The notes under the pieces: model-generated
The model's input: only the letters and a program-made list of their open reading frames with translations
What the model was told of the DNA's origin: nothing
Databases searched by the model: none
Assembly (NCBI GenBank): GCA_965261735.1
Contig: OZ253470.1
Coordinates: forward strand, 3,744,001-3,808,000
Direction of reading: 5' to 3'
DNA length: 64,000 bases
Origin: Alphaproteobacteria bacterium
Lineage (GTDB): Bacteria > Pseudomonadota > Alphaproteobacteria > SHVV01
Shown: one piece after another, positions 4,381 to 27,190 of the stretch
How the letters are laid out: every line of letters starts with the position of its first letter
Position numbering within the stretch: the first letter of the stretch is position 1
Position numbers and translations under genes: made by a program

Positions 4381-5321
4381 TCTCAATCAGCGTCTTGGTG
4401 GCGGCTAGCTCCGACACTTTGCGCAGCGCGTGGGGTGCTCAAGATCCACGGCCTGGTCAAACCGCTCCATCTGCACGCTTGTTGAGGGAAACGGGACCAC
4501 TGATAATAAACGAGGATTCTCGTTGGTAATGGGGGCTCGCAAACAACGAGAATCACTGGTAGTACCGGTGGTGCTGTAGGTTCAAATGGGGATGGGCTCG
4601 CCGAGGGACGATGGGTATCGGGCGCTAACTCAACATCGGTGACCTGATATCCGCTTTCCGGCCGATCATGCCCGCTTCAGGGCCAAGAGCGGACCTACAA
4701 AGCAGGGTAGCGGCAGGTCTGCTACTGACCCAAAGCGGACGTCCGGCTGGCACCGATGGGGGCGACTGACAGTCGATAACTAGCCTAGTTCAACCGGGCG
4801 CAAGCCCTGTCGAAGCCACCGCTCGAAAATGGCGAGTAAGGAGCCTCCACCGTCAGGACTATGTTTTTGCGAGCAGCGAGTTGCACTCGTTGACCACGTC
4901 ATTGTCGGCTTCCTCCTCACCGGGCAGGACCGCCCACTGCTCGGCAAGTTTGCGCCGATCACCGAAATTGTTGAGCACGTCGGATGTCGCCTCCGGATCC
5001 GATCGAGCCCGCTCCGCGCAGAGCCCTGCTCGATAGGAAACGACCGCATCGCTGATTTGCACTCTCCATCGTCCTGGTAGTGACTTGCCAGCCGATCCAG
5101 CTGGAGATGAATGGCCCCACCACCAAGCCAATCACCAGGAAGATTATGCGCGGCCTCCACTCCTGAATTATCGTAACTACCCAGGTACCCCGCTCCTGAC
5201 CGCGAGAGGATGATGTAGGTGGTCGCCGGGGCCGGGTTTCCGCCGCCGCGTCGTTGATCGTCTCTTGACTCCATAGAATCGGGCGTCTATGGGTTGCGCT
5301 CTCGTGTGACGGGAGCGGCGC

Positions 5322-5987
5322 GTGGGATATTTCGGGTCGAAGGCGACGAGCGGTCTGTGCCAGGCGCTGATTGCGCTGATGCCGCCGCACAGCGTTTACA
5401 TCGAGAGCCACCTGGGGGGCGGTGCGCTGATGAAGCGCAAGCCAACGGGCGTGCGCTCGATCGGCATCGACCGCGATGCGCAGGCGCTCGAGGCCTTTGC
5501 CTGTGACTACCCGGTCGAGTTGGTGCATGGCTGTGCCCATGCCTTTTTGGCCTCGTTCCCGTTTCTGGGCCCGGAGCTGGTCTACAGCGATCCCCCCTAT
5601 CTGCACGCGACCCGCCGTTCGGCACGGCGCTATCGCTTCGACTTCGAGGAGGTCGACCATGTCGCGCTCCTGGACCTGCTCAAGGATCTGCCCTGCCAGG
5701 TGATGGTCTCGGGCCATCCCTCGGCGCTCTATGACGAGATGCTGGCGGGCTGGCGCAGTCTGGCGCTGCAGGTGACGACCCAGGCCCAGGTGCGGACCGA
5801 GGTCGTGTGGTTCAACTTCGCGCCCGACCGGGTGCATTGGGCGAGCTACGCAGGCCGGAACTTCACCGACCGCCAGCGCATCAAGCGTAAGGCGGCCAAC
5901 TGGGGCCGGCGTTACAAGGCCTTGCCGGCGGGCGAACGCCTCGCGGTGCTGGCCGCCATGATGGCCGTCGATGCCGAGGACCCGTGA
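5322..5987 (+). CDS. DNA adenine methyltransferase (D12/Dam-like)
   Basis: YFGSK...YIESHLGGGA SAM-binding region and YSDPPY catalytic motif. Confidence 0.85.
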   Translation: MGYFGSKATSGLCQALIALMPPHSVYIESHLGGGALMKRKPTGVRSIGIDRDAQALEAFACDYPVELVHGCAHAFLASFPFLGPELVYSDPPYLHATRRSARRYRFDFEEVDHVALLDLLKDLPCQVMVSGHPSALYDEMLAGWRSLALQVTTQAQVRTEVVWFNFAPDRVHWASYAGRNFTDRQRIKRKAANWGRRYKALPAGERLAVLAAMMAVDAEDP

Positions 5988-7522
5988 CGCTGTCGCGCTG
6001 GCACGAGGACCTCGCCGCCCATGACGAGGCCTTCGCGTGCCTGCAAGATCTTCTTGACCCCTCATCCTTCGCAACCACAGTCGTCAAGGCCTTCGGGGAA
6101 TGGGGCCAGGGGCTGTTGCGCCTGGCCACGGCGCTCGTCCGGGAGAATGCCGCGCTCGAGCGGGAGAACGCGACCCTGCGGGACCGCATCGCCGAGCTCG
6201 AGCGGAGCGCGGCGCTTGACAGCACCACCAGCAGCAAGCCGCCCGCCAGCGACGGCCTGCGCAAGAAGAGCCGAACCCAGAGGCGCACCCGAAGCCAGCG
6301 CGGCAAGTCCGGCAGGCCAAGCGGCGGCCAGCCGGGCCACAAGGGAACGACGCTGGCGCGGACCGAGAGCCCGGACCATGTTGTGGATCATGACCCCTCC
6401 GCCTGTTCGGGCTGCGGCGCACCGCTGTCGGACGCCGACCGTCACCGCGCGCCCGTCTGTCGACAGGTCTTCGATGTGCCCGAGCCACGCCCCCTGGAGG
6501 TCACCGAACACCGCGCCCATCGCTGCCTCTGCGGCGCCTGCGCCACCGTGACAGGAGCCGTCTTCGCGGACGGCGTGACCGCCCCGGTCCAGTACGGGCC
6601 ACGCATCACCGCCTGGGTGAGCTACCTGCTGTACGCCCAGTTCGTTCCCGAGAAGCGCTTGGCCGAACTCATGAGCGACCTCTTCGCAGTGTCCATCTCC
6701 ACAGCCACGATCACCGCCATGGGCCGGCGAACCGCCAGGCGCTTCGAGCCCTTCCTCGCCCATGTCGCAGACGTGATCCGCACAGCGGTCCCGGTCAAGC
6801 ACCTCGACGAAACCGGCCTGCGGATCGCCGCCCGTACCCGCTGGCTCCACGTGCTGTGCACCCCATTCCTGACCGTCCTGCGCATCGGCGCGGGACGCGG
6901 CGATGTCGAAAAGGACCTCGAAGGCATCCTCATCCATGACGATTACGCCGCCTACTTCACCCTCAAGGGCGTGCGCCACGGCGCCTGCAACGCCCATCAC
7001 CTGCGCGAACTCCAGGCCCTGATCGACATCGAGAAGGAAGACTGGGCAAAGAGCATGCACCGCCTCCTTGAGCGCGCACACAGGGCTACCCGCTTCTCCC
7101 GTGAGAACGGCCGCGACGCGCCCGCCTCCCTGGTGGCCCGGATCTCGCGGGCCTGGGCCCGCATCCTCGACCACGCCATCGCCTTCCACGAGGCGCAGCC
7201 GCCGCTCCGGACCGGCAAGCGCGGACGAAAGAAACGCCGCATCGGTCATAACCTCGCGCTCCGCCTCCGCAAGCACAAGGAGGGATGCCTGCGATTCCTC
7301 ACCGACCCGCGCACGCCGTTTACGAACAATGAGGCCGAACGTGACCTCCGAATGGCCAAGCTGCGCCAGAAGATCTCCGGTGGCTTCCGCTCCGAGAGGG
7401 GTGCCTGCAACTTCGCCAGAATGCGTGCCGTCATCGCCACCGCCCGAAAGCAAGGCTGGAACGTCCTCCAGACCCTGGTGCATCCCGATCCGATGCAACT
7501 AATCCCCCAACTGCGCCTCTGA
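5984..7522 (+). CDS. tnpC: IS66 transposase TnpC
   Basis: SSKPPASD, GGQPGHKG, CxxC zinc finger, HLDETG, CNAHHLREL and FTNNEAERDLR motifs. Confidence 0.95.
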   Translation: MTLSRWHEDLAAHDEAFACLQDLLDPSSFATTVVKAFGEWGQGLLRLATALVRENAALERENATLRDRIAELERSAALDSTTSSKPPASDGLRKKSRTQRRTRSQRGKSGRPSGGQPGHKGTTLARTESPDHVVDHDPSACSGCGAPLSDADRHRAPVCRQVFDVPEPRPLEVTEHRAHRCLCGACATVTGAVFADGVTAPVQYGPRITAWVSYLLYAQFVPEKRLAELMSDLFAVSISTATITAMGRRTARRFEPFLAHVADVIRTAVPVKHLDETGLRIAARTRWLHVLCTPFLTVLRIGAGRGDVEKDLEGILIHDDYAAYFTLKGVRHGACNAHHLRELQALIDIEKEDWAKSMHRLLERAHRATRFSRENGRDAPASLVARISRAWARILDHAIAFHEAQPPLRTGKRGRKKRRIGHNLALRLRKHKEGCLRFLTDPRTPFTNNEAERDLRMAKLRQKISGGFRSERGACNFARMRAVIATARKQGWNVLQTLVHPDPMQLIPQLRL

Positions 7523-8179
7523 GAACACCGGCACCGCTACCAGCCCGGACCCCCACGATCCCTCACATACAAACGCTCGGGCCAATCAGACCTGGGTAGT
7601 TACGAATTATCTTCACCTGTTCGAGTCCTTTTCGCCTGACATTTCCCAGATAACCGTCAAATCGACTCCGACAGTACCTGATTTTTCACCGACCATCGGA
7701 TTCGTTCACCAGAGCGTCTTGATGGCGCGCGTCGCGGTGGGCCTGCTCGTCCCGATCAGCTCATGCCGAGCGGGCGGCAGCTCGAAATGCAAGGACTGGA
7801 CGTGGGGGGAATTCCGCGCCCGTTGGCCGCCCTCGGCGCGTTGAATGAGCTGGTTTCTTGCACCAGGAAGACCGACACGACTTGATCACGGATACAACAG
7901 AGAGTTCTTCAGCAGCCTCGGCTAAAAGCAGGCATTCTAGTGTGAGTGCGCCTAACGTCCACTAGTGCGTCACATAATGACTGGGAGGAACTACGCATGA
8001 ATAAGTCATTGTTAGCGTCGTGCCGAGCGCTCTTCCTCGCCGCGGCTTTCGCTGCGACTGCCGTTCTCGCCGGCGTGGCCCCGGCGGAAGCCGCCGCGTC
8101 CAAGCTGAAAATCCTCTTTGGGACGCCGCCGACGACATACGCCATCCCCTACTACCTCGCTATCGACAAAGGCTGGTTT

Positions 8180-9045
8180 CTTGCCTATCCGGTTAACGCC
8201 CATGACCGCTACATGTAGGGTGCCGCCACTCTCCCGAGTAAAGCTCGGCATAGGTTGGAGCAGAGGTGTCGCCCGCGATGCCGAGCAATGAGCGGAAGGC
8301 GTTGAACGGGTAGAACCGCCTGTTGAAGCGGAAGGTGAACTCGTTGAGGTAGGCTTGTAGGTGCTGGTGGCTAACGCCGTGGTGGATACCGATCAGCCAC
8401 GTCTTCAGGTTGGCGAAAACCAGATGGATGATCGGCAGGTATTGCTCGGCAACCTCTGGATCACCACACTCGGCAACAGCGAAGTGCTCATAGCCGCGCT
8501 TCCCGAGGCCAGCATAGCCGCTCCAATCGTCAGTAACGATCAGCGATCGCGGCGCGACGGTGCTCTCGACGAACCCACAGAGCGACTCGGCGCTACGGTC
8601 GAGCACGACGGCGAGCCGAACGCGTCCGGCATAGCGTCCGTCTTTCCGGTTGTCGAGCTTGGTGCCCGGCTTTCGATGACGCACCTCGATGGCACAGGAG
8701 ACGGGAACCTTGTGGTGAACACCACGGCCTTCCCCACGCGTTCGCCCGCCAACCCAGGTTTCGTCCACCTCAACATGGTTCTTGGGCTGTCCACCGATCC
8801 TGTCTTGGTTGGGCCGCACCATGCCCGAGCGGAGCTTGTGGAGAATTTGAAAGGCCGTCTCCCCAGCGGGCTTTCTCCAGGTAGGCGGCGCAGGCCGCAT
8901 CATCGGCGAAAAGTCGCTGGAACTCGGGTAGCGAATGCGGGAATGGGAGATCGGCGCGGTCGAGAACATCCATGGCGCGCTCCCCTATATCCGGTTTGCG
9001 CCCACTCTAGCCCTAGTGGGTGTGGGTGTAAACCGGATAGGTAAG
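8180..9045 (-). mobile_element. IS1595-family element A (ISSod11-like), internal 239-bp deletion
   Basis: IR CTTGCCTATCCGG; near-perfect TSD GCTGGTTT / GCTGGTTC. Confidence 0.95.
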
Positions 9046-9463
9046 GCTGGTTCAAGGACATGGACCTCGAGGTCGAGGACATTCACTTAATCGGTAGCAG
9101 CAACTCGCTGCGCGCCCTGATTTCGGGCAGCGGCGACGTCGTGCTTGTCGGCCCGTCGTCGACCATGCTGAGCATCCAGGGCGGCAGCGGCGTCAAGGTC
9201 ATCGGCTCATGGCAGCCGCGGGTGGACTATCAGCTGATTGGCAGCCGGAAGATGAAGGTCGCCAAGATCGAGGATATTCCCGGTAAGACAATGGCCGGCG
9301 GCGGCGGCATCGGCATGCTCAATCACATGACGTCGATGATCCTGAAAAGAAACGGCCTCGACCCCAAGGTCGACTTCGTTGCGGTGGGCGGCCACGCCGA
9401 TCGGCTGGCAGCGGTGGTCGCGGGCAAGGCGGACTATGCGCTCGTCAACACCTTGCACGCAAC

Positions 9464-14244: not shown

Positions 14245-15879
14245 GGGTGCGAGTCTCGCATGGCAGTGATGTCTGCGGCTTGGTTCGTTGAGTTCAGGCA
14301 GCGATTGCCATGGCTGCTGCACGTGGACTGATGTTGTCGTTGGCCGGTGTGTCGGTTGCGCTGATCAGGGCCTTCCATGCGCGCTCGAAGCGGCCGGATT
14401 TGATCAGGGCGCGGAAGGTCAGAACAGCCTGTCCGCCGACGATCCGCCAGCGCATGCCGGAGCGCTTCATGCGCTGTGTCACCAGGGATCTTGTTGGCAG
14501 CCTCGACCACGCCTGAGCCGATGGCGATGCCCTCTTCCTTCAGGGCGTGGTAGCGCATGCGATGGCGATGCTTGCGGAAGAAGGCGAGTTCCCGCTCGGT
14601 CTCGGCCCGGTCCGGCGCAGCGGCGGCATCGCGAAGGTGGCGCAGCGCCCGGATCACCTTGGCGACGCCACGGGGATCGTGACGGAGGATCTCGCGGTAC
14701 TTCTCGAACCAGCCGGGCGCCACGGCATGGTCGGACGCGGTTTGCAGATGTTCGCAAGCATGCCAGAAGTCGATCACCTCGGTTTCGGGCGACAGGGTCT
14801 CCAGGAAGGTCCAGTTGTCGGCGGCGCCATCGGCGATAGCGACGATCCCGATCTCGGGGCGTGCTCGCCTGATGTGTGCGACTTCGCTTGCAAGCTGCGC
14901 CTTCAGCGTGAGCTTGCCGCTCTCCGGCATGGGGCCGAGATAGAGGGTCTTCAGGCGCTTGCCCTCGGCGTCGTGGAAGGAGACCGTGCCGCAGGCGGCC
15001 TCGCGCCAGGAGGCCTTGGCGCGACCGTCCTCGCCGGGTCTCAGCGGCACCATGACGCCGTCGAGGGAGACCGAGGCGGTGGTCGCGTCCTGCGGTATGC
15101 CCTCGGCCTCACGGATGCTGCCCAGCGTCTCCGGGCCGAGGCTCTCCCAGCATTCGTGCATGCTCAGGGTCAGGCGCTCACCGACGGCGTCATGGCGCCG
15201 GTCTTCGCAAAGAACGCCGCCGCTTCCCGGGCCGTGCAGCGACCCATCATCAGCAGACCGAGCTCGGCCGCCGGCCGCGTCAGGTAATCGTCGACGAGGC
15301 CCAGGCTCTCGTCGACCGGCACCGGCGATGCCCCGCTCGCGCCGCTGCGGTAACGCGCTCGCCGGTAGGCGAGCGAGGTCATGATCGTCTTCGGCGTCAC
15401 CGCGACCCGGAACCAGCTCTGCCCGTCCCGCTCGATCCGGGAAGCGCCATCGTCCCGGTTCTCGATGACGGCGCCCATGACATCGCGAGCGAACTCGTTC
15501 GTGGCCTCACGCACCCGCAACTCGACCTCCTCGGGCACCTCGGGGCGCGGCTCGGAACGAAGCTCCTCGCGACACAGTGCGAGCACCCGGGCGGCCGCCT
15601 CGACGACCCGAGGAGGCAGGCCGGAAAGATCGATGGACGAAGGCGCCGGAGGCGGGGATACTGCCATGGGAATGCTCCCGATGTTGGGTTTCGAGACACG
15701 GCATCGTACCGCTTCTGGCGGTGCGGAGCGTTCCCACCTTCCCCTGCTCGACCCTGCCGTCGTGACAAAATCCTGCCTTGGAGCGGCCCATTGTCACGAA
15801 TAGCCGTTTTCGGCCGTTCGTCTCGACACAAAAACGCACTAAATCAATGACTTAGATTTTCCATACCAGACCCACACCC
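14245..15879 (-). mobile_element. ISKra4/ISLre2-like IS, frameshifted transposase (copy 2)
   Basis: Near-identical to 2745-4380, same termini. Confidence 0.85.
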
Positions 15880-16367
15880 TCCATAACTCCGGTCGCGCCA
15901 TGGTATGGGAACAGACCCCTGCGTTTTTCCCGTTCGCGAGATGAGAGAGGAATTCTCTTACTATCGAGTAGTTCGACCACTTCCCCGACACCGACGGCAG
16001 CCCATCCTTCCGGTTTCCCGTCCTCATCCAGCTTGTCGGGAAACAGATCCCAAATTTCCGGTGCGAGGTAAGGATCGCGGCCCTCGATCTTGGCGCGGGT
16101 GGGTCCGAAATCCACGAACCAGTCCTTGAACAGCGCCCGCGCCATCGCCTCCAGCGTCTCGTTCATGCGCCGGTTCAGCTCGATCTTGTCGTCCAGCGTG
16201 CCGAGGATGTGAGCGATGGCACGTTGTTCGTTGACATCATCGGGGAACCAAACAGGAGCCTGATGCAAATGATTCCAGTTTAGCCCAGGCACCGCTGCTT
16301 TGTCTGAAAAGGGCAGAAAATCAATGCCTTTCAAGAAATAGCTGATAAACCGTGGATCATTATTTTT
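15880..16367 (-). pseudogene. hsdS: Type I restriction-modification specificity subunit, internal fragment
   Basis: Conserved EQRAIAHILGTLDDKIELNRRMNETLEAMARALFKDWFVDF spacer followed by PEGW; cut by an IS on both sides. Confidence 0.9.
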
Positions 16368-16484
16368 GGGAATTGTATACAATTCTAGCCAATATCTCGA
16401 CATATCATTGATTTCATTACACAAATAAGCGCTTGAACCTTCTGGCTCGTTTTCCCTATATTATTAGCCATAGGGAGATTACAC

Positions 16485-18533
16485 ATGGCCAAACGCGACA
16501 AGATTGAAATCATGAGCGCCTGGGATTTCATGGCGCGATTTCCTACTGACAAGGATGCGCGAGGCCATATCGAGCGGATGCGCTGGGGCAATGAACCTTA
16601 CTGCCCTCACTGCGGAAGCGTTCGGATCAGTCATATCACAAACGAGAAACCGCAACCTTATCGCTGCAAGGATTGCCGCAAGCACTTCTCGGTCACGACA
16701 GGGACGGTGTTCCAGTCCGCCAAACTCTCACCACGCAAGTGCCTCTATGCGATCTATCTCATGGTCATTGCCAAGAAGTCCATTTCAAGCTGCCAGATGG
16801 CGCGGGAATTGGGCTGCACGCAAAAGACAGCGTGGTATCTCGCCCAGCGCATTCGTGAGACATGGCTCAACAAGTCCAGCATTGGCGACCCGATGGCTGG
16901 CGAGATTGAAATCGATGAAACCTATATAGGCGGGCTGGAGCGCAACAAGCACGCATCGAAAAAGTTGAAGGCCGGACGTGGCCCGGTCGGAAAGCAGCCG
17001 GTTATCGGGCTGCGGGAACGCGGATCGGGCCAAGTTAGGGCGCACCCAATTACCGGAACCGATGCGGCGCATCTACAAGGCGCAGTGCGTTCAGAGGTGG
17101 TGCCGGGATCAACTATCCTTGCCTATCCGGGTTACACCCACACCCACTAGGGCTAGAATGGGCGCAACCCGGATATAGGGGAGCGCGCCATGGATGTTCT
17201 CGACCGCGCCGATCTCCCATTCCCGCATTCGCTACCCGAGTTCCAGCGACTTTTCCCCGATGATGCGGCCTGCGCCGCCTACCTGGAGAAAGCCCGCTGG
17301 GGAGACGGCTTTGCCTGCCCGCACTGCGGCACGGCGGGAGAGCCGTTCCACTTTGAAAACCGCCCTGGCGTCCTGCGCTGCCGCAAGTGCCGCCAGAACA
17401 CCGGGCTGACGGTGGGAACAGTGATGGAGCGTAGCCACACTCCGCTGAACGTCTGGTTCTGGGCCGCTTATCTGGTCGCCAGTCAGACGCCCGGCATGTC
17501 CGCCGTGCAGTTTCAGCGGCAACTTGGTCTTTCGCGCTACGAGACGGCCTTTCAAATTCTCCACAAGCTCCGCTCGGGCATGGTGCGGCCCAACCAAGAC
17601 AGGATCGGTGGACAGCCCAAGAACCATGTTGAGGTGGACGAAACCTGGGTTGGCGGGCGAACGCGTGGGGAAGGCCGTGGTGTTCACCACAAGGTTCCCG
17701 TCTCCTGTGCCATCGAGGTGCGTCATCGAAAGCCGGGCACCAAGCTCGACAACCGGAAAGACGGACGCTATGCCGGACGCGTTCGGCTCGCCGTCGTGCT
17801 CGACCGTAGCGCCGAGTCGCTCTGTGGGTTCGTCGAGAGCACCGTCGCGCCGCGATCGCTGATCGTTACTGACGATTGGAGCGGCTATGCTGGCCTCGGT
17901 AAGCGCGGCTATGAGCACTTCGCTGTTGCCGAGTGTGGTGATCCAGAGGTTGCCGAGCAATACCTGCCGATCATCCATCTGGTTTTCGCCAACCTGAAGA
18001 CGTGGCTGATCGGTATCCACCACGGCGTTAGCCACCAGCACCTACAAGCCTACCTCAACGAGTTCACCTTCCGCTTCAACAGGCGGTTCTACCCGTTCAG
18101 CGCCTTCCGCTCATTGCTCGGCATCGCGGGCGACACCTCTGCTCCAACCTATGCCGAGCTTTACTCGGGAGAGTGGTGGCACCCTACATGTAGCGGTCAT
18201 GGGCGTTAACCGGATAGGCAAGCAACTATCTACACAGACGGTCATCGCGCCTATCGCGGTATGGGCGAGTACATTCATGAAGCGGTCGAGCATTCGGTCG
18301 GAGAGTATGTCCGCGATCAAGCCCACACCAACGGGATCGAATCCTTCTGGGCTTTGTTGAAGCGCGGATATATTGGAACCTTCCACCATTTCTCCGAGAA
18401 GCATATGGGTCGCTATGTCGATGAGTTCGCAACCCGCCATAACAGGCGGAAATGGGATACGATGGCCCATATAGACCAGAGCCTCCGCAACGCGGGCGGA
18501 GTCCTTGGCTACAAACGCCTCACCGCGAACTAG
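16485..18533 (+). pseudogene. IS1595 element B transposase, interrupted by element A
   Basis: CPHCG zinc ribbon, EIDETYIGG, STI|YTDGH and HTNGIESFW motifs rejoin after removing 17118-18230. Confidence 0.9.
17118..18222 (+). mobile_element. IS1595 element A, full length (transposase 17190-18209)
   Basis: IRs CTTGCCTATCCGG; 8-bp TSD CAACTATC. Confidence 0.97.
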
Positions 18534-18542
18534 AGCCAGCCT

Positions 18543-19298
18543 ATGCCGCGCAAAGCCCAGCAGATGATTGAGCCCATCGACACAACGATGGATACCCTGA
18601 CCGCGACCGTGTTTTCCGGCCAAAGAACCGTGCAAGCACCGCCGCTAGCTTTGCCTGATGTTCTGAAACCGAACGTACGGCTGAAAATGGACGGGTTGGC
18701 GTTTCTGGACCTGTTGCCCGAAGCGTCGGTCCCGGTCGCTTTCCTCGACCCGCAATACCGCGGGGTTCTTGAAAAGCTGGCCTACGGGAACGAAGGCATG
18801 GGTCGGGGCAAGCGCCGTTGTGCACTTGAACAGATGCATGAAGACACAATCGGCCAATTCGTGCGGGGCATTCATCGGGCGCTGATCCCTTCCGGTCACC
18901 TGTTTCTATGGGTCGACAAGTTTCACCTCTGCCAAGGTGTCCACCCATGGTTGGAAGGAACCCTCCTTGACATCGTTGACCTGCTGACTTGGGACAAGGG
19001 CACGTTTGGCATGGGATACCGAACACGGCGGCGGGCCGAATATTGCGTGATCCTGCAAAAGCCGCCGCGCAAGGCGAAGGGCGTCTGGAAAATCCACAAC
19101 ATCCCGGACGTGCACAAAGAAGCCGCGCCGAAAACCGGGCACCCGCACGCGAAGCCTGTGGACCTGCAAGGCGAGTTGATGGCCGCCGTGAGCCATGAGG
19201 GCGATTTCGTCATAGACCCGGCCGCAGGATCGTTCTCGGTCCTGCAAGCGGCCAAGAACCGCCGACGCACCTTTCTCGGGTGCGACCTGAACGGCTAG
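18543..19298 (+). CDS. N6A/N4C DNA methyltransferase (beta-class motif order)
   Basis: FLDPQY catalytic motif, HPHAKP, VIDPAAGS SAM-binding motif, FLGCDL. Confidence 0.9.
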   Translation: MPRKAQQMIEPIDTTMDTLTATVFSGQRTVQAPPLALPDVLKPNVRLKMDGLAFLDLLPEASVPVAFLDPQYRGVLEKLAYGNEGMGRGKRRCALEQMHEDTIGQFVRGIHRALIPSGHLFLWVDKFHLCQGVHPWLEGTLLDIVDLLTWDKGTFGMGYRTRRRAEYCVILQKPPRKAKGVWKIHNIPDVHKEAAPKTGHPHAKPVDLQGELMAAVSHEGDFVIDPAAGSFSVLQAAKNRRRTFLGCDLNG

Positions 19299-19886
19299 CG
19301 GCATGGCCCGCCTTCGGGACGCCAAGCCCAAGAACACGTCTGGTTCATACGAGCGCATTTTTGGCAATCCCGAGCTGGGCGCACTGGCCAGCAAGATTCA
19401 GTCTGCCGTGATTACGTCCGGCTCGGAACTCGAAGCGATGATCGTGGCTGCGGTCCCGAATATCCCAGACCTAGATCCTTTCCTGGAGCAGGAGATCATG
19501 CCGGAAGGCGTGTTCCTGGCCACCAAGCGCCAGATCAAGAAATCGGGTACCTTGGATTTTGCCGGGTCCGAACCTGACTTCATGGTGTTCAAGCGGCGGA
19601 AGAAGATACCTTGCCTATCCGGTTTACACCCACACCCACTAGGGCTAGAATGGGCGCAACCCGGATATAGGGGAGCGCGCCATGGATGTTCTCGACCGCG
19701 CCGATCTCCCATTCCCGCATTCGCTACCCGAGTTCCAGCGACTTTTCCCCGATGATGCGGCCTGTGTTGGTAGCGACCGTAAATTTCCCATTTGTAACGA
19801 CCCAAAATTTCTCACTTTGGGCTTGTCGCTGAAGGCGTCCCGGGCCGCTCTGTTGGCTTTGCCAACAGAGCGGGATCGGTGCGCGG

Positions 19887-20909
19887 ATGTACAAATGGGA
19901 GACCAGGATGTTGTTGAAGCACTATCTGGACCGGGGTGTCTCGAAGGCGGAGCTGTCGAGGCGGTTCGGGGTGAACCGTCGGACGATCCACAATTGGGTC
20001 GATACCGGCCAACTGGACCGGGATCTGGCGGCCGGTGCGCGAGGGTATTCGCCCCGTCCGCCGGTGGCCCACAAGCTGGACCCCTACAAGGCGATCATCG
20101 ACGCCCGTCTTGAGGCGTTCCCGAAGCTGTCGGCGAAGCGGCTTTTCGATGAGGTCCGCGCTGCGGACTACCCGGGCTGCTACTCTCGCGTGAACGACTA
20201 CGTGCGGGCGACGCGACCGCGCGAACCGGTTGAATCGCTGGTCCGGTTCGAGACGCCGGCGGGGCGTCAGGGCCAGGTGGACTTCGGTACGTTCACGCTG
20301 CCCTGGGGCCGGCGCCATGCCCTGGTGATCGTCCTCGGCTTCACCCGGCTGCTGTGGCTGCACTTCTATACTCGGCAGACCATGCCGGTCCTGATGGAAG
20401 GTCTGGAGAGCGCCTTCGACCGGTTCGGCGGGGTTCCGGAGGAGCTGCTGTTCGACCAGATGCGCGCCGTGGTGCTGTCCGACGACCGCGGGGCCGGCGG
20501 CGGCCTGGTGCTGAACGAGGAGTTTCTGCGGTTCGCCGCGCACTGGGGGTTCATGCCGCGCTCGTGCCGACCCTATCGGGCCCAGACCAAGGGCAAAGTG
20601 GAGCGCCCGATCCGCTACATCCGCGAGAGCTTCTTCTACGGCCGCTCGTTTGCGAATGACAACGATCTCAACGAGCAGGCCGTGCGCTGGCTGGAGGGCA
20701 CAGCCAACGTCCGCCGGCATGCCACGACCGGGGAGCGTCCTGTCGACCGCTTCGAGCGCGACGAGCGAGCGGTGCTTCTCCCCTTGGCGAACCATCCCTA
20801 TCGACGTCTCGGCGTCCGGCATGCTCCGGAGCCCGCGCCGCGGCGACTGCCGGCAACCGTGAAGGTCGAGCAGCGACCGCTTAGTGTCTATGCGGAGGCG
20901 CTGCAATGA
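19887..20909 (+). CDS. istA: IS21 transposase
   Basis: RFETPAGRQGQVDFG and TKGKVER motifs. Confidence 0.95.
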   Translation: MYKWETRMLLKHYLDRGVSKAELSRRFGVNRRTIHNWVDTGQLDRDLAAGARGYSPRPPVAHKLDPYKAIIDARLEAFPKLSAKRLFDEVRAADYPGCYSRVNDYVRATRPREPVESLVRFETPAGRQGQVDFGTFTLPWGRRHALVIVLGFTRLLWLHFYTRQTMPVLMEGLESAFDRFGGVPEELLFDQMRAVVLSDDRGAGGGLVLNEEFLRFAAHWGFMPRSCRPYRAQTKGKVERPIRYIRESFFYGRSFANDNDLNEQAVRWLEGTANVRRHATTGERPVDRFERDERAVLLPLANHPYRRLGVRHAPEPAPRRLPATVKVEQRPLSVYAEALQ

Positions 20910-21703
20910 ACGCTCCGGCGCCGGCCCGGCGCGACCGGCTGCGGGCAATGCTGGCGGACCTCAAGATGCCGGGCGCGCTGGAGGCCGTCGACGGCATCCT
21001 CTCGGACGCCGACGGCGGCACGATCTCGGCGGCCGAGGCCATCGAGCAGTTGCTGAACGCCCAGATCGTGCTGCGCAACAACCGCCGTCTCCAGACCGCC
21101 ATGCGCTCTTCGCGGCTGCCGGCTGTGAAGACGCTCGATCAGTTCGACTTCGCCTTCCAGCCCAGCATCAAGCGCGAGCAGATCGAGAGCTTGCACGAGC
21201 TCGGCTTCCTGGACCGCGGCGAGAACGTGATCCTGCTCGGCCCACCAGGCGTCGGGAAAACGCACTTGGCGATCAGCCTCGCGATCGCGGCGGCCGAGGC
21301 CGGCCGGCGCGTCTACTACGGCACGCTCGCGGCGCTGATCGAGTCCCTCACCGAGGCCAAGGCCGCCGGCAATCTGACCCGGCGGCTGCGCGTGCTCACC
21401 CATCCGGCCCTGCTGGTGGTCGACGAGATCGGCTACCTGCCGGTCAACCAGGACGGCGCCGTGCTCTTCTTCCAGCTCATCAACGCCCGGCACGAGAGGG
21501 CGTCGACTGTGCTGACGTCGAACAAGGGTTTCGAGGACTGGGGTGGCGTGCTCGGCGACGAGGTCATGGCGGCGGCTCTCATCGACCGCCTTGTGCACCA
21601 CTGCCACATCGTCAACATCCGGGGCAACAGCTACCGGATGAAGGAGCATCAGAACCTGCTGCAGTCCGGCTCGGATCGACGCAGGAAAAGAGCCGCCGCG
21701 TGA
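20906..21703 (+). CDS. istB: IS21 helper ATPase
   Basis: GPPGVGKT Walker A, LLVVDEIGY Walker B. Confidence 0.95.
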   Translation: MNAPAPARRDRLRAMLADLKMPGALEAVDGILSDADGGTISAAEAIEQLLNAQIVLRNNRRLQTAMRSSRLPAVKTLDQFDFAFQPSIKREQIESLHELGFLDRGENVILLGPPGVGKTHLAISLAIAAAEAGRRVYYGTLAALIESLTEAKAAGNLTRRLRVLTHPALLVVDEIGYLPVNQDGAVLFFQLINARHERASTVLTSNKGFEDWGGVLGDEVMAAALIDRLVHHCHIVNIRGNSYRMKEHQNLLQSGSDRRRKRAAA

Positions 21704-23316
21704 TCGCCGGCTCAAACGGAGACAGGAGCGGTGACACCCGCCCGCTGTGGATAACCGGGTTGTCGCCGCCAGACTCTTGGCGGTCGCTGCGCCAACCCGG
21801 TTACCTACAGCTCGACCAAGTCCGACACCCCAAACACCGCGTCTGGGGGTACGACCGAACGCTCAAAGTGAGAAATATTTCGATCGACAAAAGTGGGAAA
21901 TTTTCAGTCGCAATTGACAGCCTGCGCCGCCTACCTGGAGAAAGCCCGCTGGGGAGACGGCTTTGCCTGCCCGCACTGCGGCACGGCGGGAGAGCCGTTC
22001 CACTTTGAAAACCGCCCTGGCGTCCTGCGCTGCCGCAAGTGCCGCCAGAACACCGGGCTGACGGTGGGAACAGTGATGGAGCGTAGCCACACTCCGCTGA
22101 ACGTCTGGTTCTGGGCCGCTTATCTGGTCGCCAGTCAGACGCCCGGCATGTCCGCCGTGCAGTTTCAGCGGCAACTTGGTCTTTCGCGCTACGAGACGGC
22201 CTTTCAAATTCTCCACAAGCTCCGCTCGGGCATGGTGCGGCCCAACCAAGACAGGATCGGTGGACAGCCCAAGAACCATGTTGAGGTGGACGAAACCTGG
22301 GTTGGCGGGCGAACGCGTGGGGAAGGCCGTGGTGTTCACCACAAGGTTCCCGTCTCCTGTGCCATCGAGGTGCGTCATCGAAAGCCGGGCACCAAGCTCG
22401 ACAACCGGAAAGACGGACGCTATGCCGGACGCGTTCGGCTCGCCGTCGTGCTCGACCGTAGCGCCGAGTCGCTCTGTGGGTTCGTCGAGAGCACCGTCGC
22501 GCCGCGATCGCTGACCGTTACTGACGATTGGAGCGGCTATGCTGGCCTCGGTAAGCGCGGCTATGAGCACTTCGCTGTTGCCGAGCGTGGTGATCCAGAG
22601 GTTGCCGAGCAATACCTGCCGATCATCCATCTGGTTTTCGCCAACCTGAAGACGTGGCTGATCGGTATCCACCACGGCGTTAGCCACCAGCACCTACAAG
22701 CCTACCTCAACGAGTTCACCTTCCGCTTCAACAGGCGGTTCTACCCGTTCAACGCCTTCCGCTCATTGCTCGGCATCGCGGGCGACACCTCTGCTCCAAC
22801 CTATGCCGAGCTTTACTCGGGAGAGTGGCGGCACCCTACATGTAGCGGTCATGGGCGTTAACCGGATAGGCAAGGAAGATACAGGCCTGCCATATCGTCG
22901 AACTGAAAGACGGACATGTGTTCGACACCAAGAAGGCCGGGGCTGAGCGAACCGCTATGCATCGGTTTATTGAGCGGAATGCTCAGCACATTCAGTACCG
23001 GTTCGAATCGCATTTCGTCGCCTTCAATCAGGACGACAGAACCGCGATTTGGGAGGGGTTCAAGAAGAGGATCGCCTTGAGCGAAGCCATGACAGGTCGG
23101 CAATTCTGCCAGCTTCTTGAGATCGACTATGACGCCATTGTGCAGCCGCGGCTAGTCGATTGTGCCGACAACGTGGAGTTCTTTCTGTCAGAATTAACGA
23201 AGATCAAAGGCATCAAGCAGAGGCTGCTTGATCTGCTGAATGGCTAGGATTGTATATAATTCCCTTATGTTACCCAAAGATTATTTTCGGGCAGCGAATT
23301 CCGATGGGAGGCGACC

Positions 23317-24738
23317 GTGCCCTACGTGTTCTACGACACCGAGACTACCGGGACCAAAACAGCCTTCGATCAAATCTTGCAATTTGCCGCCATCAGAACG
23401 GATGACGATCTCAACGAACTGGATCGCCTTAATATAAGGTGCTGCTTGCTGCCGCATATTGTCCCGTCGCCGGGGGCGCTCCGCGCTACGCGGGTCACAC
23501 CGGCGATGCTGACCGATCCGGCGTTGCCGTCCCACTATGAAGCGATCCGACAGGTCCAGGCAAAACTTCTGGAGTGGTCGCCAGCAACGTTCATCGGCTT
23601 CAATTCGCTTGAGTTCGACGAGCCCCTGCTGCGCCAAGCCCTGTTTCAGACTCTTCACCCAGCCTATCTGACGAACACCAACGGCAACGCGCGCTCCGAT
23701 GTGATGCGCGTGGCGCACGCGGTCAGCATCTATGCCCCAGACAATATAACTGTGCCGACCGACGACCGGAGTCGGCAGACCTTCCGCCTTGAACGTCTCG
23801 CACCTGCGAACGGCTACAATCACGACGAAGCGCACGAGGCGATGGCGGACGTCGAGGCAACGATCTACATGGCTCGCTTAGTACAGGACCGCGCACTGGA
23901 CATCTGGCATGCCATGGACCGGGCGAGCACAAAAAATGCCGTTAAAGCGTATGTCACGGCCCAGTCGATGTTCTCGTTGACCGAGCGCTATTTCGGGCGC
24001 ACCTATTCGTGGCTTGTGGCGCCCTGCGGTCAAAACCCTGCCTATGATGGCCAGCTTGCCGTCTTCGATCTCTATTACGATCCCGACGACTATCGCTCAC
24101 TGTCCACAAAGGATTTGATTGGTGTTCTGAATGCCAGCCCGAAGGTGATCCGGTCCCTGCGGGCCAGCAGCCAACCCATCATGATGTCGGCAGATGTGGC
24201 CCCGGAGAATGTCAAAGCGCTTTCTGTTCCGGCCGACGAGCTGCGCCGCCGTGTCGCAGTCATTCAGGACGATAAGGATTTTCACGCACGGGTCGGGCAG
24301 GCACAGGCGCTTCGTTTTGCGGATAAGGAACCCTCACCGCATATCGAACAGCGACTTTATGACAGCTTTCCGGGCGACGCGGATCAGGCGCTTATGGCGC
24401 AGTTTCACGATGTGGATTGGTCGGACCGTGTGGCCCTTACTGGGCGAATCGAGGACCCTCGCGTGAAGGCATTTGCGCATCGCCTCATCTACTTTGAACG
24501 CCCTGATTTGCTGCCCGCCGACAGAAGGGCTGAACTTGATGCATGGCGGGCCAAACGGGCGCTGAGCGAGGATGAGAGTGTTCCCTGGATGACCGTCAGG
24601 AAAGCGCTGCGCGAGGCTGATGACCTCCTACAAAATGCCGCTGCCGATGAGCGTGCATTGCTCGGCGCGGTTAAGGATTTTCTTGTCGAGCTTGCGCAGC
24701 ATCTCGGTTCTGAATCAACATCAACTGGGCGCTTATGA
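23317..24738 (+). CDS. sbcB: Exonuclease I-like DEDDh 3'-5' ssDNA exonuclease
   Basis: FYDTETTG, DQILQFAAIRTD, GFNSLEFD and AHEAMADV motifs; 473 aa. Confidence 0.85.
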   Translation: MPYVFYDTETTGTKTAFDQILQFAAIRTDDDLNELDRLNIRCCLLPHIVPSPGALRATRVTPAMLTDPALPSHYEAIRQVQAKLLEWSPATFIGFNSLEFDEPLLRQALFQTLHPAYLTNTNGNARSDVMRVAHAVSIYAPDNITVPTDDRSRQTFRLERLAPANGYNHDEAHEAMADVEATIYMARLVQDRALDIWHAMDRASTKNAVKAYVTAQSMFSLTERYFGRTYSWLVAPCGQNPAYDGQLAVFDLYYDPDDYRSLSTKDLIGVLNASPKVIRSLRASSQPIMMSADVAPENVKALSVPADELRRRVAVIQDDKDFHARVGQAQALRFADKEPSPHIEQRLYDSFPGDADQALMAQFHDVDWSDRVALTGRIEDPRVKAFAHRLIYFERPDLLPADRRAELDAWRAKRALSEDESVPWMTVRKALREADDLLQNAAADERALLGAVKDFLVELAQHLGSESTSTGRL

Positions 24739-24744
24739 AGTAGG

Positions 24745-25033
24745 ACGTGGCTGACAGACGGCCCGACTACTCGTACCTTGTGGCAGCGCTTCCTTCGCCT
24801 CCGGCAGCGCGGAGGGCGAAATCCCGGCGGCCGAGCGCCTTGATATCTGTTATTTTGACGATGCAGGTTTTAAACACGGCGTCCAGCGCACACCTTTATC
24901 GCCGATCTGCGCATTGTGAATGAACAAGAACGGGGTCCGCGAAGACGGAACGGCGGCTGACTCTTGGCGATGGCGTGATGTAGGGTGGTGCATCCTGGCG
25001 ATTATCAGAGTCAATATTTACACGTCAGCCAGT
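24745..25033. ncRNA. Candidate structured RNA between the exonuclease and RT genes
   Basis: Closing IR TGGCTGAC / GTCAGCCA enclosing several hairpins; no expression evidence. Confidence 0.25.
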
Positions 25034-25052
25034 GGTTAGTGGCGTGCGAAAT

Positions 25053-25853
25053 CTAAGCCTCTCCCACTTGGTCCCATAGCTCATCTATTGGCAGCCTCGG
25101 AGTATCTTTGAGCAGCGCCACGTCCAAAGCTCTGCGTCTCCGATCATCGATAACGGCGCTATTGATGCAATGGTTTGCACGTCCTTTGAACTCCCTCAGC
25201 AATCGATTGATTTCGCTATCAATCTGGTGAAACGGGAGGCGGTTGTTGGTAAACGAAAACGCGTCTCCCCAACCGCGAATCAGTCGGTCCACGCGAACGA
25301 GCACTTGAGCAAATGCCTCTTCTGCTCGTCGTTCATTGTCGGCGGAGGCATACGCCGTGATTGCATGGCTTCCAGTGTTCAGAGTGTACCGAATATTTCT
25401 CAGAAAACTTTTCCTCGCCTTTTTCGATGGCATAACACTATTGGCTTGGATGGAGCATCCGAGAAAATCAAACCCATCGGAAACCTGACCAACCTTTGAC
25501 TTATCAGTGTTTTCGTCGGGATCATACGCTTTCATCCCGAGATCGCCGAGAATGGAGATAGCCGAGGAGAAGGCGGTTTGTACAGCGTTCTCCGATCGTC
25601 CAAGGATTACAAAATCATCAATGTACCGGACGGTCCTGATATTTCGGCTGTTCAGATTTCTATCGAAATCCTGCAAAACGACGTTCCCTGCAAATGCTGA
25701 AAGGGAGGACCCTTGAGGTACTCCGATGTCCTCAAGCGGGAACAAGTGAAGCCATTCCCTGATTTCGTCCGCATTTTCCAATTCTGTAGTCATGGCTAGC
25801 TCAAGAAGCGCCGCGAAGTCGTCATCACCGGTCTGGTCGCGCACAAAGTCGAT
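25053..25853 (-). pseudogene. Group II intron-like reverse transcriptase (G2L4-type, YIDD), N-terminus removed at IS256
   Basis: GVPQGSSLS, RYIDDFVIL, GFDFLG and thumb-like IRGWG motifs; no endonuclease domain and no intron domain V downstream. Confidence 0.8.
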
Positions 25854-27190
25854 GATCGTGTCCCGCGGAGTGGTGTAAGAGCGTTGCGCTCTACGCGGCT
25901 CCCGGCGGGTAGGGCCGGGACGTTCAGGCTGCCACGGTGGGCAGCGTGATGGGGACACCATCGCTCAGCGGAGCGATGGATTCCAGCGTCATGTATCTCC
26001 TTGAGACGGCCCACTCGTCGTTCTGCTCGAGAAGGATGGCGCCGACGAGCCGTGTGATGGCGGCTTCGTTGGGAAAGATACCGACGACGTTGGTGCGACG
26101 CTTGACCTCGGCATGGAGCCGTTCGATCGGGTTTGTGGAGTGCAATTTCTGGCGGTGCTCCCTGGGGAAGCTCATGTAGGCGAGGACGTCGTGCTCGGCT
26201 TCGTCCATGAGAACTGCCAGCTTGGGCACCTTGGGCCTGAGCTGGTCGGCGACCTGGCGCCACTGGACCTTCGCGCTGTCGGCGCCCTCCTGGGCGAAGG
26301 CGGAGACGACGCGCCGGCCCTGGCGGCCGGCATGGGCCAGCAGGTTGCGGGCGAAGTGCACGCGGCAGCGCTGCCATGTGGCGCCGAGGATCCGGGTCGC
26401 GGCGGCCTTCAGGCCCTTGTGGTCGTCGGAGATCACCAGCTTCACGCCGCGCAGCCCGCGCCGGGCCAGCGAGCGCAGGAACTCGGTCCAGAAGGTCTCG
26501 GCCTCCGACGCGCCGATCGCCACGCCCAGGACCTCGCGGCGGCCTTGGTCGTTGACGGCCACAGCCACGGTCACCGCGACCGAGACGATGCGTCCGGTCT
26601 GGCGCACCTTCACGTAGGTGGCGTCGAGCCACAGATAGGGCCAGTCGCCCTCCAGCGGTCGATCGAGGAAGCCGTTGACCTTATCGTCGATCTCGCCGCA
26701 CAGCCTGGAGACCTGGCTCTTGGAGGCGCCCGACATCCCCATCGCCTGAACCAGATCGTCGACCGAGCGGGTCGACACCCCCTGGATGTAGGCCTCCTGG
26801 ATCACCGCAGCCAGCGCCTTCTCGGCCATCCGCCGCGGCTCCAGGAAGCCCGGGAAGTAGCTTCCCTTCCTCAGCTTCGGGATCTTCAGCTCGACCGTGC
26901 CGGCCCGCGTCTCCCAGGACCGGTCGCGGTAGCCGTTGCGATGGGTGATACGATCCGCCGAGCGCTCGCCGTGCCCGGCGCCGGTCAGGCCCTCAACCTC
27001 CAGTGCCATCAGCCGCTCGGCCGTGAAGCCGATCATCTCGCGCAAAAGGTCGGCGTCAGAACTCTTTTCCAACAGTGCGCGCAGCGTCATCATGTCGTTG
27101 GCGGTCATCGTGGTTCTCCTCCGGTCGGGTGGACTCTGCAAGCCCAACCCTAAACCGGTACCGCGATGGCCTCCGCTGTGGGACACGACC
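25854..27190 (-). mobile_element. IS256-family element (transposase 25924-27108)
   Basis: IR G(A/G)TCGTGTCCC; [16 protein letters not shown] and STNPIERL motifs; no TSD. Confidence 0.92.

Follow-up and report, generated by a model that had tools for sequence, protein, structure and literature searches.

The reverse transcriptase (RT) and exonuclease I (ExoI) genes that converge in this stretch of DNA are most probably co-inherited island cargo, neighbours on mobile DNA rather than a two-gene system, with the RT now a pseudogene. The stretch, called the window here, is 64,000 nucleotides long and part of one 5.03-Mb contig (G000) dense in insertion sequences (IS). A first-pass annotation had read the pair as a module of an RT and a 3' exonuclease, with an RNA as a further part, for end processing or defence. 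It had also described an intact ExoI-like gene lying tail-to-tail with a 5'-truncated, G2L4-like RT in lower-GC accessory DNA. The description holds. What stands of the module is that the pair recurs in close kin, and what falls is any linkage outside this lineage.

Table 1. Positions of the features discussed (window coordinates, except the last row, which gives other loci)
Feature	Position	Strand	Remarks
Transporter IS1595-type element with type II restriction–modification (RM) pair	16368..23264	+	24-bp terminal inverted repeats at 16368 and 23264
Methyltransferase (MTase), in transporter IS1595	18543-19298		
Restriction endonuclease (REase), split	19303-~19605 and ~22876-23247		divided by nested IS1595::IS21
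Intact exonuclease I, SbcB-like	23317..24738	+	473 aa; DEDDh 3'-5' ssDNA exonuclease family; RNase_T + Exonuc_X-T_C (Pfam)
Gap between stop codons	24739..25052	.	314 bases
G2L4 RT remnant	25053-25853	-	residues 168-433 of intact 433-aa relative; 3' two-thirds of gene
IS256-family element cutting RT	25854..27190	-	1337 bp (usual 1434/1449); 97-bp loss near upstream end; no target-site duplication
HTH + ImmA/IrrE + ExoI loci	L206:1345-3855; L207:7310-9614; L223-L226 about 7100-9410; L229		absent from window

Because 22860-25860 has no match elsewhere in the genome, no IS lies between the two genes, as first annotated. GC content is 0.50 for the RT, 0.58 for ExoI and 0.657 for the genome. The stretch with ExoI has IS borders on both sides, the left one at the end of the transporter IS1595 element. 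A structured RNA in the gap between the stop codons was considered and is not supported. The folding z-scores of the gap (0.01 on the plus strand, 1.36 on the minus strand) are no better than those of shuffles, and we found no Rfam match, no terminator-like site and no counterpart of the gap in 160 RT loci. The RNA part of the proposed module is not borne out: RTs of this family have one RNA-like partner only, the upstream direct repeat, which has already been described and is lost here.

The RT reading frame contains the PQG, YIDD and FDFLG motifs; a long insertion precedes PQG and the thumb is of the G2L4 type, all in line with the earlier description. A profile of its relatives matches the solved G2L4 RT at E=3e-111. 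Profile A1, made from 35 relatives, scores 375 bits against this RT (PDB 9d5x) and 107 bits against the next-best RT, which upholds the G2L4 call. An intact relative of 433 amino acids (P0384) is 96% identical to the remnant and scores 252 bits against the G2L4 structure, with the next match at 69. Its residues 13-417 align with 9d5x (E=7.5e-74), through RT3a and up to residue 408/411, with short gaps. With this alignment as a guide, the remnant retains the longer RT3a insertion and the extended thumb. YIDD by itself is not diagnostic of G2L4, as it also occurs, in place of YADD, in an intron-like RT clade (L032-L077). The absence of an endonuclease domain and of intron RNA was confirmed: Pfam finds RVT_1 alone in the remnant, with no DNA-binding or endonuclease domain, and Rfam at the gathering score finds no family, and so no group II intron RNA, in the whole window. 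A single-protein scan with the remnant against genome contigs gave no matches.

In a quick tree of 50 rows, of which three are wrongly picked ORFs and none is a named G2L4 reference, the window RT falls within a 22-row set that includes a Pseudomonas locus (L015; SH-aLRT 88). Intron-like RTs form a separate 20-row set (98), so the tree keeps the window RT apart from them; a grouping with ordinary group II introns was what the first-pass annotation had set against its own call. Upstream direct repeats, a hallmark of G2L4, stand about 350 bases apart in 52 of the 79 related loci with at least 500 bases upstream. The available text of the G2L4 report gives two ~140-bp upstream direct repeats in about 70% of members, and varied sites near integrases (10.1101/2022.03.14.484287). 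On its sequence, the remnant is a member of the G2L4 RT family, set apart from intron-like RTs.

The RT is broken at codon 168. Identity to an IS256 with dozens of genome copies starts at 25854, which bears out the 5' truncation first noted, and the 302-aa ORF listed at 25053-25961 is chimeric, with its first 36 codons belonging to IS256. Residues 1-167 are deleted, and with them NTE/RT0, RT1-2a and the motif-A aspartate, the first catalytic one. NTE/RT0 and the full catalytic triad are intact in relatives P0001, P0384 and P0386. In the accessible part of work on the G2L4 RT, NTE/RT0 is tied to end joining (PMC11761039). The remnant also has a G>D change in its nearly invariant RALG motif. The DNA that would hold its upstream repeats has been replaced by IS256, and no copy of it exists elsewhere in G000. 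Since one of three catalytic aspartates is lost, the remnant is probably inactive, and we infer that the RT here is a pseudogene of the G2L4 family.

The missing 5' half had been expected beside another IS256. It is nowhere in the genome: four full-length relatives used as tblastn queries, and a profile search, bring up distant RTs only (E 1e-7 to 1e-13), and no other IS256 copy in the genome has a flank matching those of the RT-cutting copy. In sequencing run X5, a 3185-base contig spans 23265-25853 and then continues for 594 unlike bases. These would have room for the missing 501 coding bases and 93 bases upstream, near where a repeat would break the assembly, which is a hint only. An exact 8-bp target duplication flanks 23 of the 49 complete IS256 copies in the genome, and the RT-cutting copy has none.

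Two observations concern the IS256 copies in their own right. The 97-base loss in the RT-cutting copy (window 27181-27190) sits between short matching stretches. The 26 complete copies without a target duplication include several with reciprocal flanks, and many flanks have been exchanged among copies, which points to extensive IS-mediated rearrangement across G000.

The ExoI gene is the sole ExoI match in G000 and is intact, as first annotated. Its protein matches solved ExoI structures (PDB 1fxx, 4rg8), with which it shares the DEDDh motifs and the C-terminal domain. The DEDDh residues D7, E9, D101, H173 and D178 are invariant in 9 of 9 aligned sequences, and we take them to correspond to the catalytic residues of the E. 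coli enzyme. Unlike SbcB of the known type, the window protein is accessory, only ~27% identical to the enterobacterial enzyme, and below the equivalog threshold of NCBIfam PRK11779 (199.8 bits against a cut-off of 260). By these measures it is placed in a diverged, patchy accessory clade rather than among core genes. A single-protein scan of viral contigs with ExoI gave no matches. With its motifs complete, ExoI most likely works alone as the only SbcB-type 3'-5' ssDNA exonuclease of the cell, an activity predicted from its family.

A PADLOC model named RTasSbcB gives the window ExoI 371 bits. Unrelated alphaproteobacterial ExoI proteins score 309-426 bits, so the model is unspecific for RT-linked ExoI, and RT-free proteins score as highly. 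The existence of the model shows that someone has already filed SbcB as RT-associated. A literature search for its origin did not find the term; supplementary tables lay outside the coverage of that search.

The pair recurs among close relatives. Contigs joining both 3' ends, tail-to-tail, occur in all four of four sequencing runs, from four studies. The 90%+ clusters of RT and ExoI have five further contig sizes in common, two of them with intact 433-aa RTs (95%), and the clusters at RT 77% and ExoI 90% have two in common (15508 and 3168139); linkage from equal contig sizes is an inference from size, not from reading DNA. A single contig of 5.0 Mb carries each gene twice, in diverged copies, which suggests that the pair was duplicated as a unit. 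The pair has stayed together for some time and, within this bacterium and its near relatives, to which it is confined, its recurrence is explained by shared descent on one mobile stretch.

Outside this lineage the linkage disappears. Not one of 160 RT loci has an ExoI match; G2L4 accounts for 106 of these loci (61 with at least 2 kb downstream, 39 with at least 5 kb). Nor is there an ExoI match (0/10) in ten whole genomes whose G2L4 RTs are close relatives (44-71% identical, including those at 66-71%). A single draw of 400 further genomes from the class, which may overlap these ten by about one genome, has G2L4 in 5, ExoI, rare in the class, in 24, and both in none. A G2L4 profile run on 50 ExoI loci, 20 with flanks of up to 8 kb and 30 with 1.5 kb, a few cut at contig ends, found 0/50. 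These 50 loci, which were read as DNA, are 24-53% identical to the window ExoI. Genome searches for the close ExoI clade reached a best identity of 53% (0/101, 4/120, 22/120 and 2/120). That clade (60-99%) was assessed through equal contig sizes only, with sizes visible for ~224 of 593 sequences and for the longest contig only.

Contig sizes give the same picture. Once the two closest cluster pairs are set aside, an equal-size match exists for 1 of 78 RT contigs, and for 1 of 147 ExoI contigs, of at least 10 kb. For the 78 RT contigs, ~0.2 matches would be expected by chance and roughly 30 if each carried a close ExoI. The match at 14504 (RT 46%, ExoI 70%) is indistinguishable from chance, and the equal sizes 1830 and 14504 together lie within chance expectation (0.88 matches overall, 0.21 for at least 5 kb). 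The neighbours are also unlike. Downstream of G2L4 they are miscellaneous, with one recurring family, a resolvase (13 of 106 neighbourhoods), and no exonuclease family is present among 48 downstream ORFs (32 loci scanned; 84 ORFs from 34 listed). ExoI elsewhere lies by HTH and IrrE-type peptidase genes, integrases, helicases or housekeeping genes. Within the closest clusters, full length is reached by 3 of 10 RTs, among which at least two distinct IS junctions occur, and by 6 of 13 ExoIs; contig ends cut some of the sequences that fall short. Both genes decay in the lineage, and ExoI has no clear lead over the RT in preservation. With linkage limited to the two closest cluster pairs, a system conserved across independent lineages is not supported.

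The island-cargo reading would run as follows. In an ancestor of the lineage, two accessory genes, each mobile in its own right, would have come to lie side by side on one island, and would have been inherited together from then on. From what is known of the family, the intact RT would have been a dimeric repair polymerase without proofreading, serving in microhomology-mediated end joining (MMEJ) as well as lesion bypass, its gene preceded by two ~135-bp direct repeats. It would have done G2L4-type end joining unaided, as in the genomes that have no ExoI match. An IS256 would then have inserted in the RT, and a later IS-driven rearrangement would have removed the 5' third, the promoter and the repeats, leaving a dead pseudogene. 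ExoI would now act alone as the only SbcB-type enzyme of the genome.

A different reading gives the two genes a joint function. G2L4 and its repeat RNA would make cDNA, snap-back products or non-homologous flaps, and ExoI would have been recruited as a brake on, or trimmer of, such 3'-ended ssDNA in hosts lacking SbcB, in a young, lineage-limited repair or defence module that is dead here. The persistence of linkage at RT 77% and ExoI 90% and the apparent paired duplication favour this, as do the scarcity of ExoI in the class (24/400) and its single copy in this genome. There is also precedent: in the available texts of the respective studies, host SbcB restrains DRT9 (UG28; PMC12483538) and DRT10 (UG17; 10.64898/2026.04.29.721553; PMC9226505). 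Those systems have an RT and an ExoI in common with the window, and in them ExoI clears ssDNA made by the RT; however, theirs is a host ExoI gene with a UG-class RT, to which DRT10 adds a SLATT effector and an ncRNA; we met none of these here. Related ExoI genes lie in accessory, defence-like operons, one of them (L206) 1 kb from a retron III-A RT, and the RTasSbcB model exists, although it is not specific to RT-linked ExoI. We consider this reading unlikely. Close G2L4 RTs occur in the ten genomes without any ExoI match, and therefore the RT does not need ExoI. Moreover, the genes are convergent, hence form no operon, share no RNA, and the RT has been inactivated repeatedly. A fuller picture, in which G2L4 is an RNA-partnered RT that copies its own upstream repeat into ssDNA needing clearance, and an SbcB-less lineage captured ExoI so that RT, repeat and ExoI moved as a unit, is similarly improbable.

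It is very doubtful that ExoI is instead part of a defence operon with the upstream RM genes, the RT being a bystander. ExoI is co-oriented with the REase and begins 70 bases past it, and a type I specificity fragment lies farther upstream. But the RM pair is cargo of the transporter IS1595, whose right end falls between REase and ExoI, and because this end separates them, the RM genes are not the operon of ExoI. Contigs in other runs break at 23264/23265, and a related ExoI contig runs into unlike DNA upstream of 23274. The RM pair is not part of the RT/ExoI pair. The transporter IS1595 has no target duplication of at least 7 bp. The two REase halves match consecutive parts of PDLC03487, and a joint of 19595 to 22882 in runs X8 and X12 leaves the REase gene unbroken.

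Farther left, 15852-16367 is a piece of a gene for type I restriction specificity, cut by insertion elements. An identical copy of the 7-kb segment 11048-18099, which takes in an IS cluster, the hsdS fragment and the transporter IS1595's left end, lies ~93 kb away in the genome.

Identification of the RT as a UG17/DRT10 defence RT, or as what is left of a group II intron, with ExoI as its known regulator, is scarcely credible: the top PADLOC match of the remnant is RT_UG17 at 86 bits and TIGR04416 gives 88 bits, but both are far under the G2L4 match, TIGR04416 is below its cut-off of 300, SLATT is absent among recurring neighbours, the tree places the RT apart from intron-like RTs, and relatives carry the G2L4 upstream repeats. 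UG17 identity was also rejected for four full-length relatives, which score 104-118 bits, similar to what a generic RT model gives, and match G2L4 far better. SLATT was sought among the 48 downstream ORFs and the recurring neighbours of G2L4 and none was found; upstream ORFs were clustered and in part annotated.

The nearest known system is the Pseudomonas aeruginosa G2L4 RT (PDB 9d5x, 9d4s). Both have YIDD, a long RT3a, an extended thumb, no endonuclease domain and a low-GC accessory setting; the match is full length through the intact relative P0384, and relatives have the two upstream direct repeats. Unlike it, the window copy is 5'-truncated, has lost its repeats, has PQG in place of AQG and adjoins ExoI. 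PrimPol-RT (PPRT), as described in the available part of its report (PMC12439943), is a precedent of a group II-like RT paired with a proofreading exonuclease, but PPRT is a fused protein and the window has two separate convergent genes from other families. Our literature search found no description of a G2L4 adjoining ExoI, and the word 'exonuclease' is absent from the main text, as available, of two G2L4 papers (10.1101/2022.03.14.484287, PMC11761039). The adjacency may be unreported, and a neighbour confined to one lineage does not make a system.

As it stands, the finding has little consequence: it adds one G2L4 RT, and a broken one, from a genome full of insertion sequences, beside a gene that only close kin have there as well. 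It does extend the repeat-plus-RT layout of G2L4 to many more loci. If the brake or trimmer reading were true, ExoI would be the first dedicated G2L4 partner and would join a repair role to the ExoI-gated logic of DRT9 and DRT10. Two observations outside the window look more promising: the near-identity of G2L4 repeats within a locus and an operon of HTH, IrrE-type peptidase and ExoI genes by defence genes.

Repeats were seen in the 600 bases upstream of the RT in L001, L003-L012, L015, L019-L026 and many of L083-L159. Within a locus they are a median 99% alike, and 32 of the 33 distinct loci reach at least 96%; between loci they are ~59% alike. Their period is 328-485 bases; L139 has three copies, and L002 and L082 have one. 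A TTGAC-N15-19-TAnnnT promoter motif occurs in 22 of 33 repeat spacers, a count made without a shuffle control; most lie 80-110 bases ahead of the second repeat. The available text of the original study describes the repeats with their RNA and does not report homogeneity within a locus (10.1101/2022.03.14.484287). This homogeneity may come from re-copying of the RT's own repeat by the RT, or simply from gene conversion.

In 6 of 20 wide ExoI loci (7 of 50 including an IrrE-type hit in L229), ExoI takes third place in an operon with HTH and ImmA/IrrE peptidase genes. The HTH and ImmA/IrrE pair presumably resembles the ssDNA-sensing CapH/CapP regulator, and by this analogy ExoI may act as a brake in a CapH/CapP-like operon. 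A literature search for CapH, CapP and SbcB together found none. The operon is divergent from ThiF/ubiquitin-like genes (a BilA hit in L206) or from nucleotidyltransferase and SLATT genes. In L206, 1 of the 20 wide loci, a retron III-A RT (4788-5945; 584 bits) converges on the operon, with one 303-aa ORF between. A second RT also occurs in one G2L4 locus (L023), where it is of the YADD type and pairs with the retron RT in the tree.
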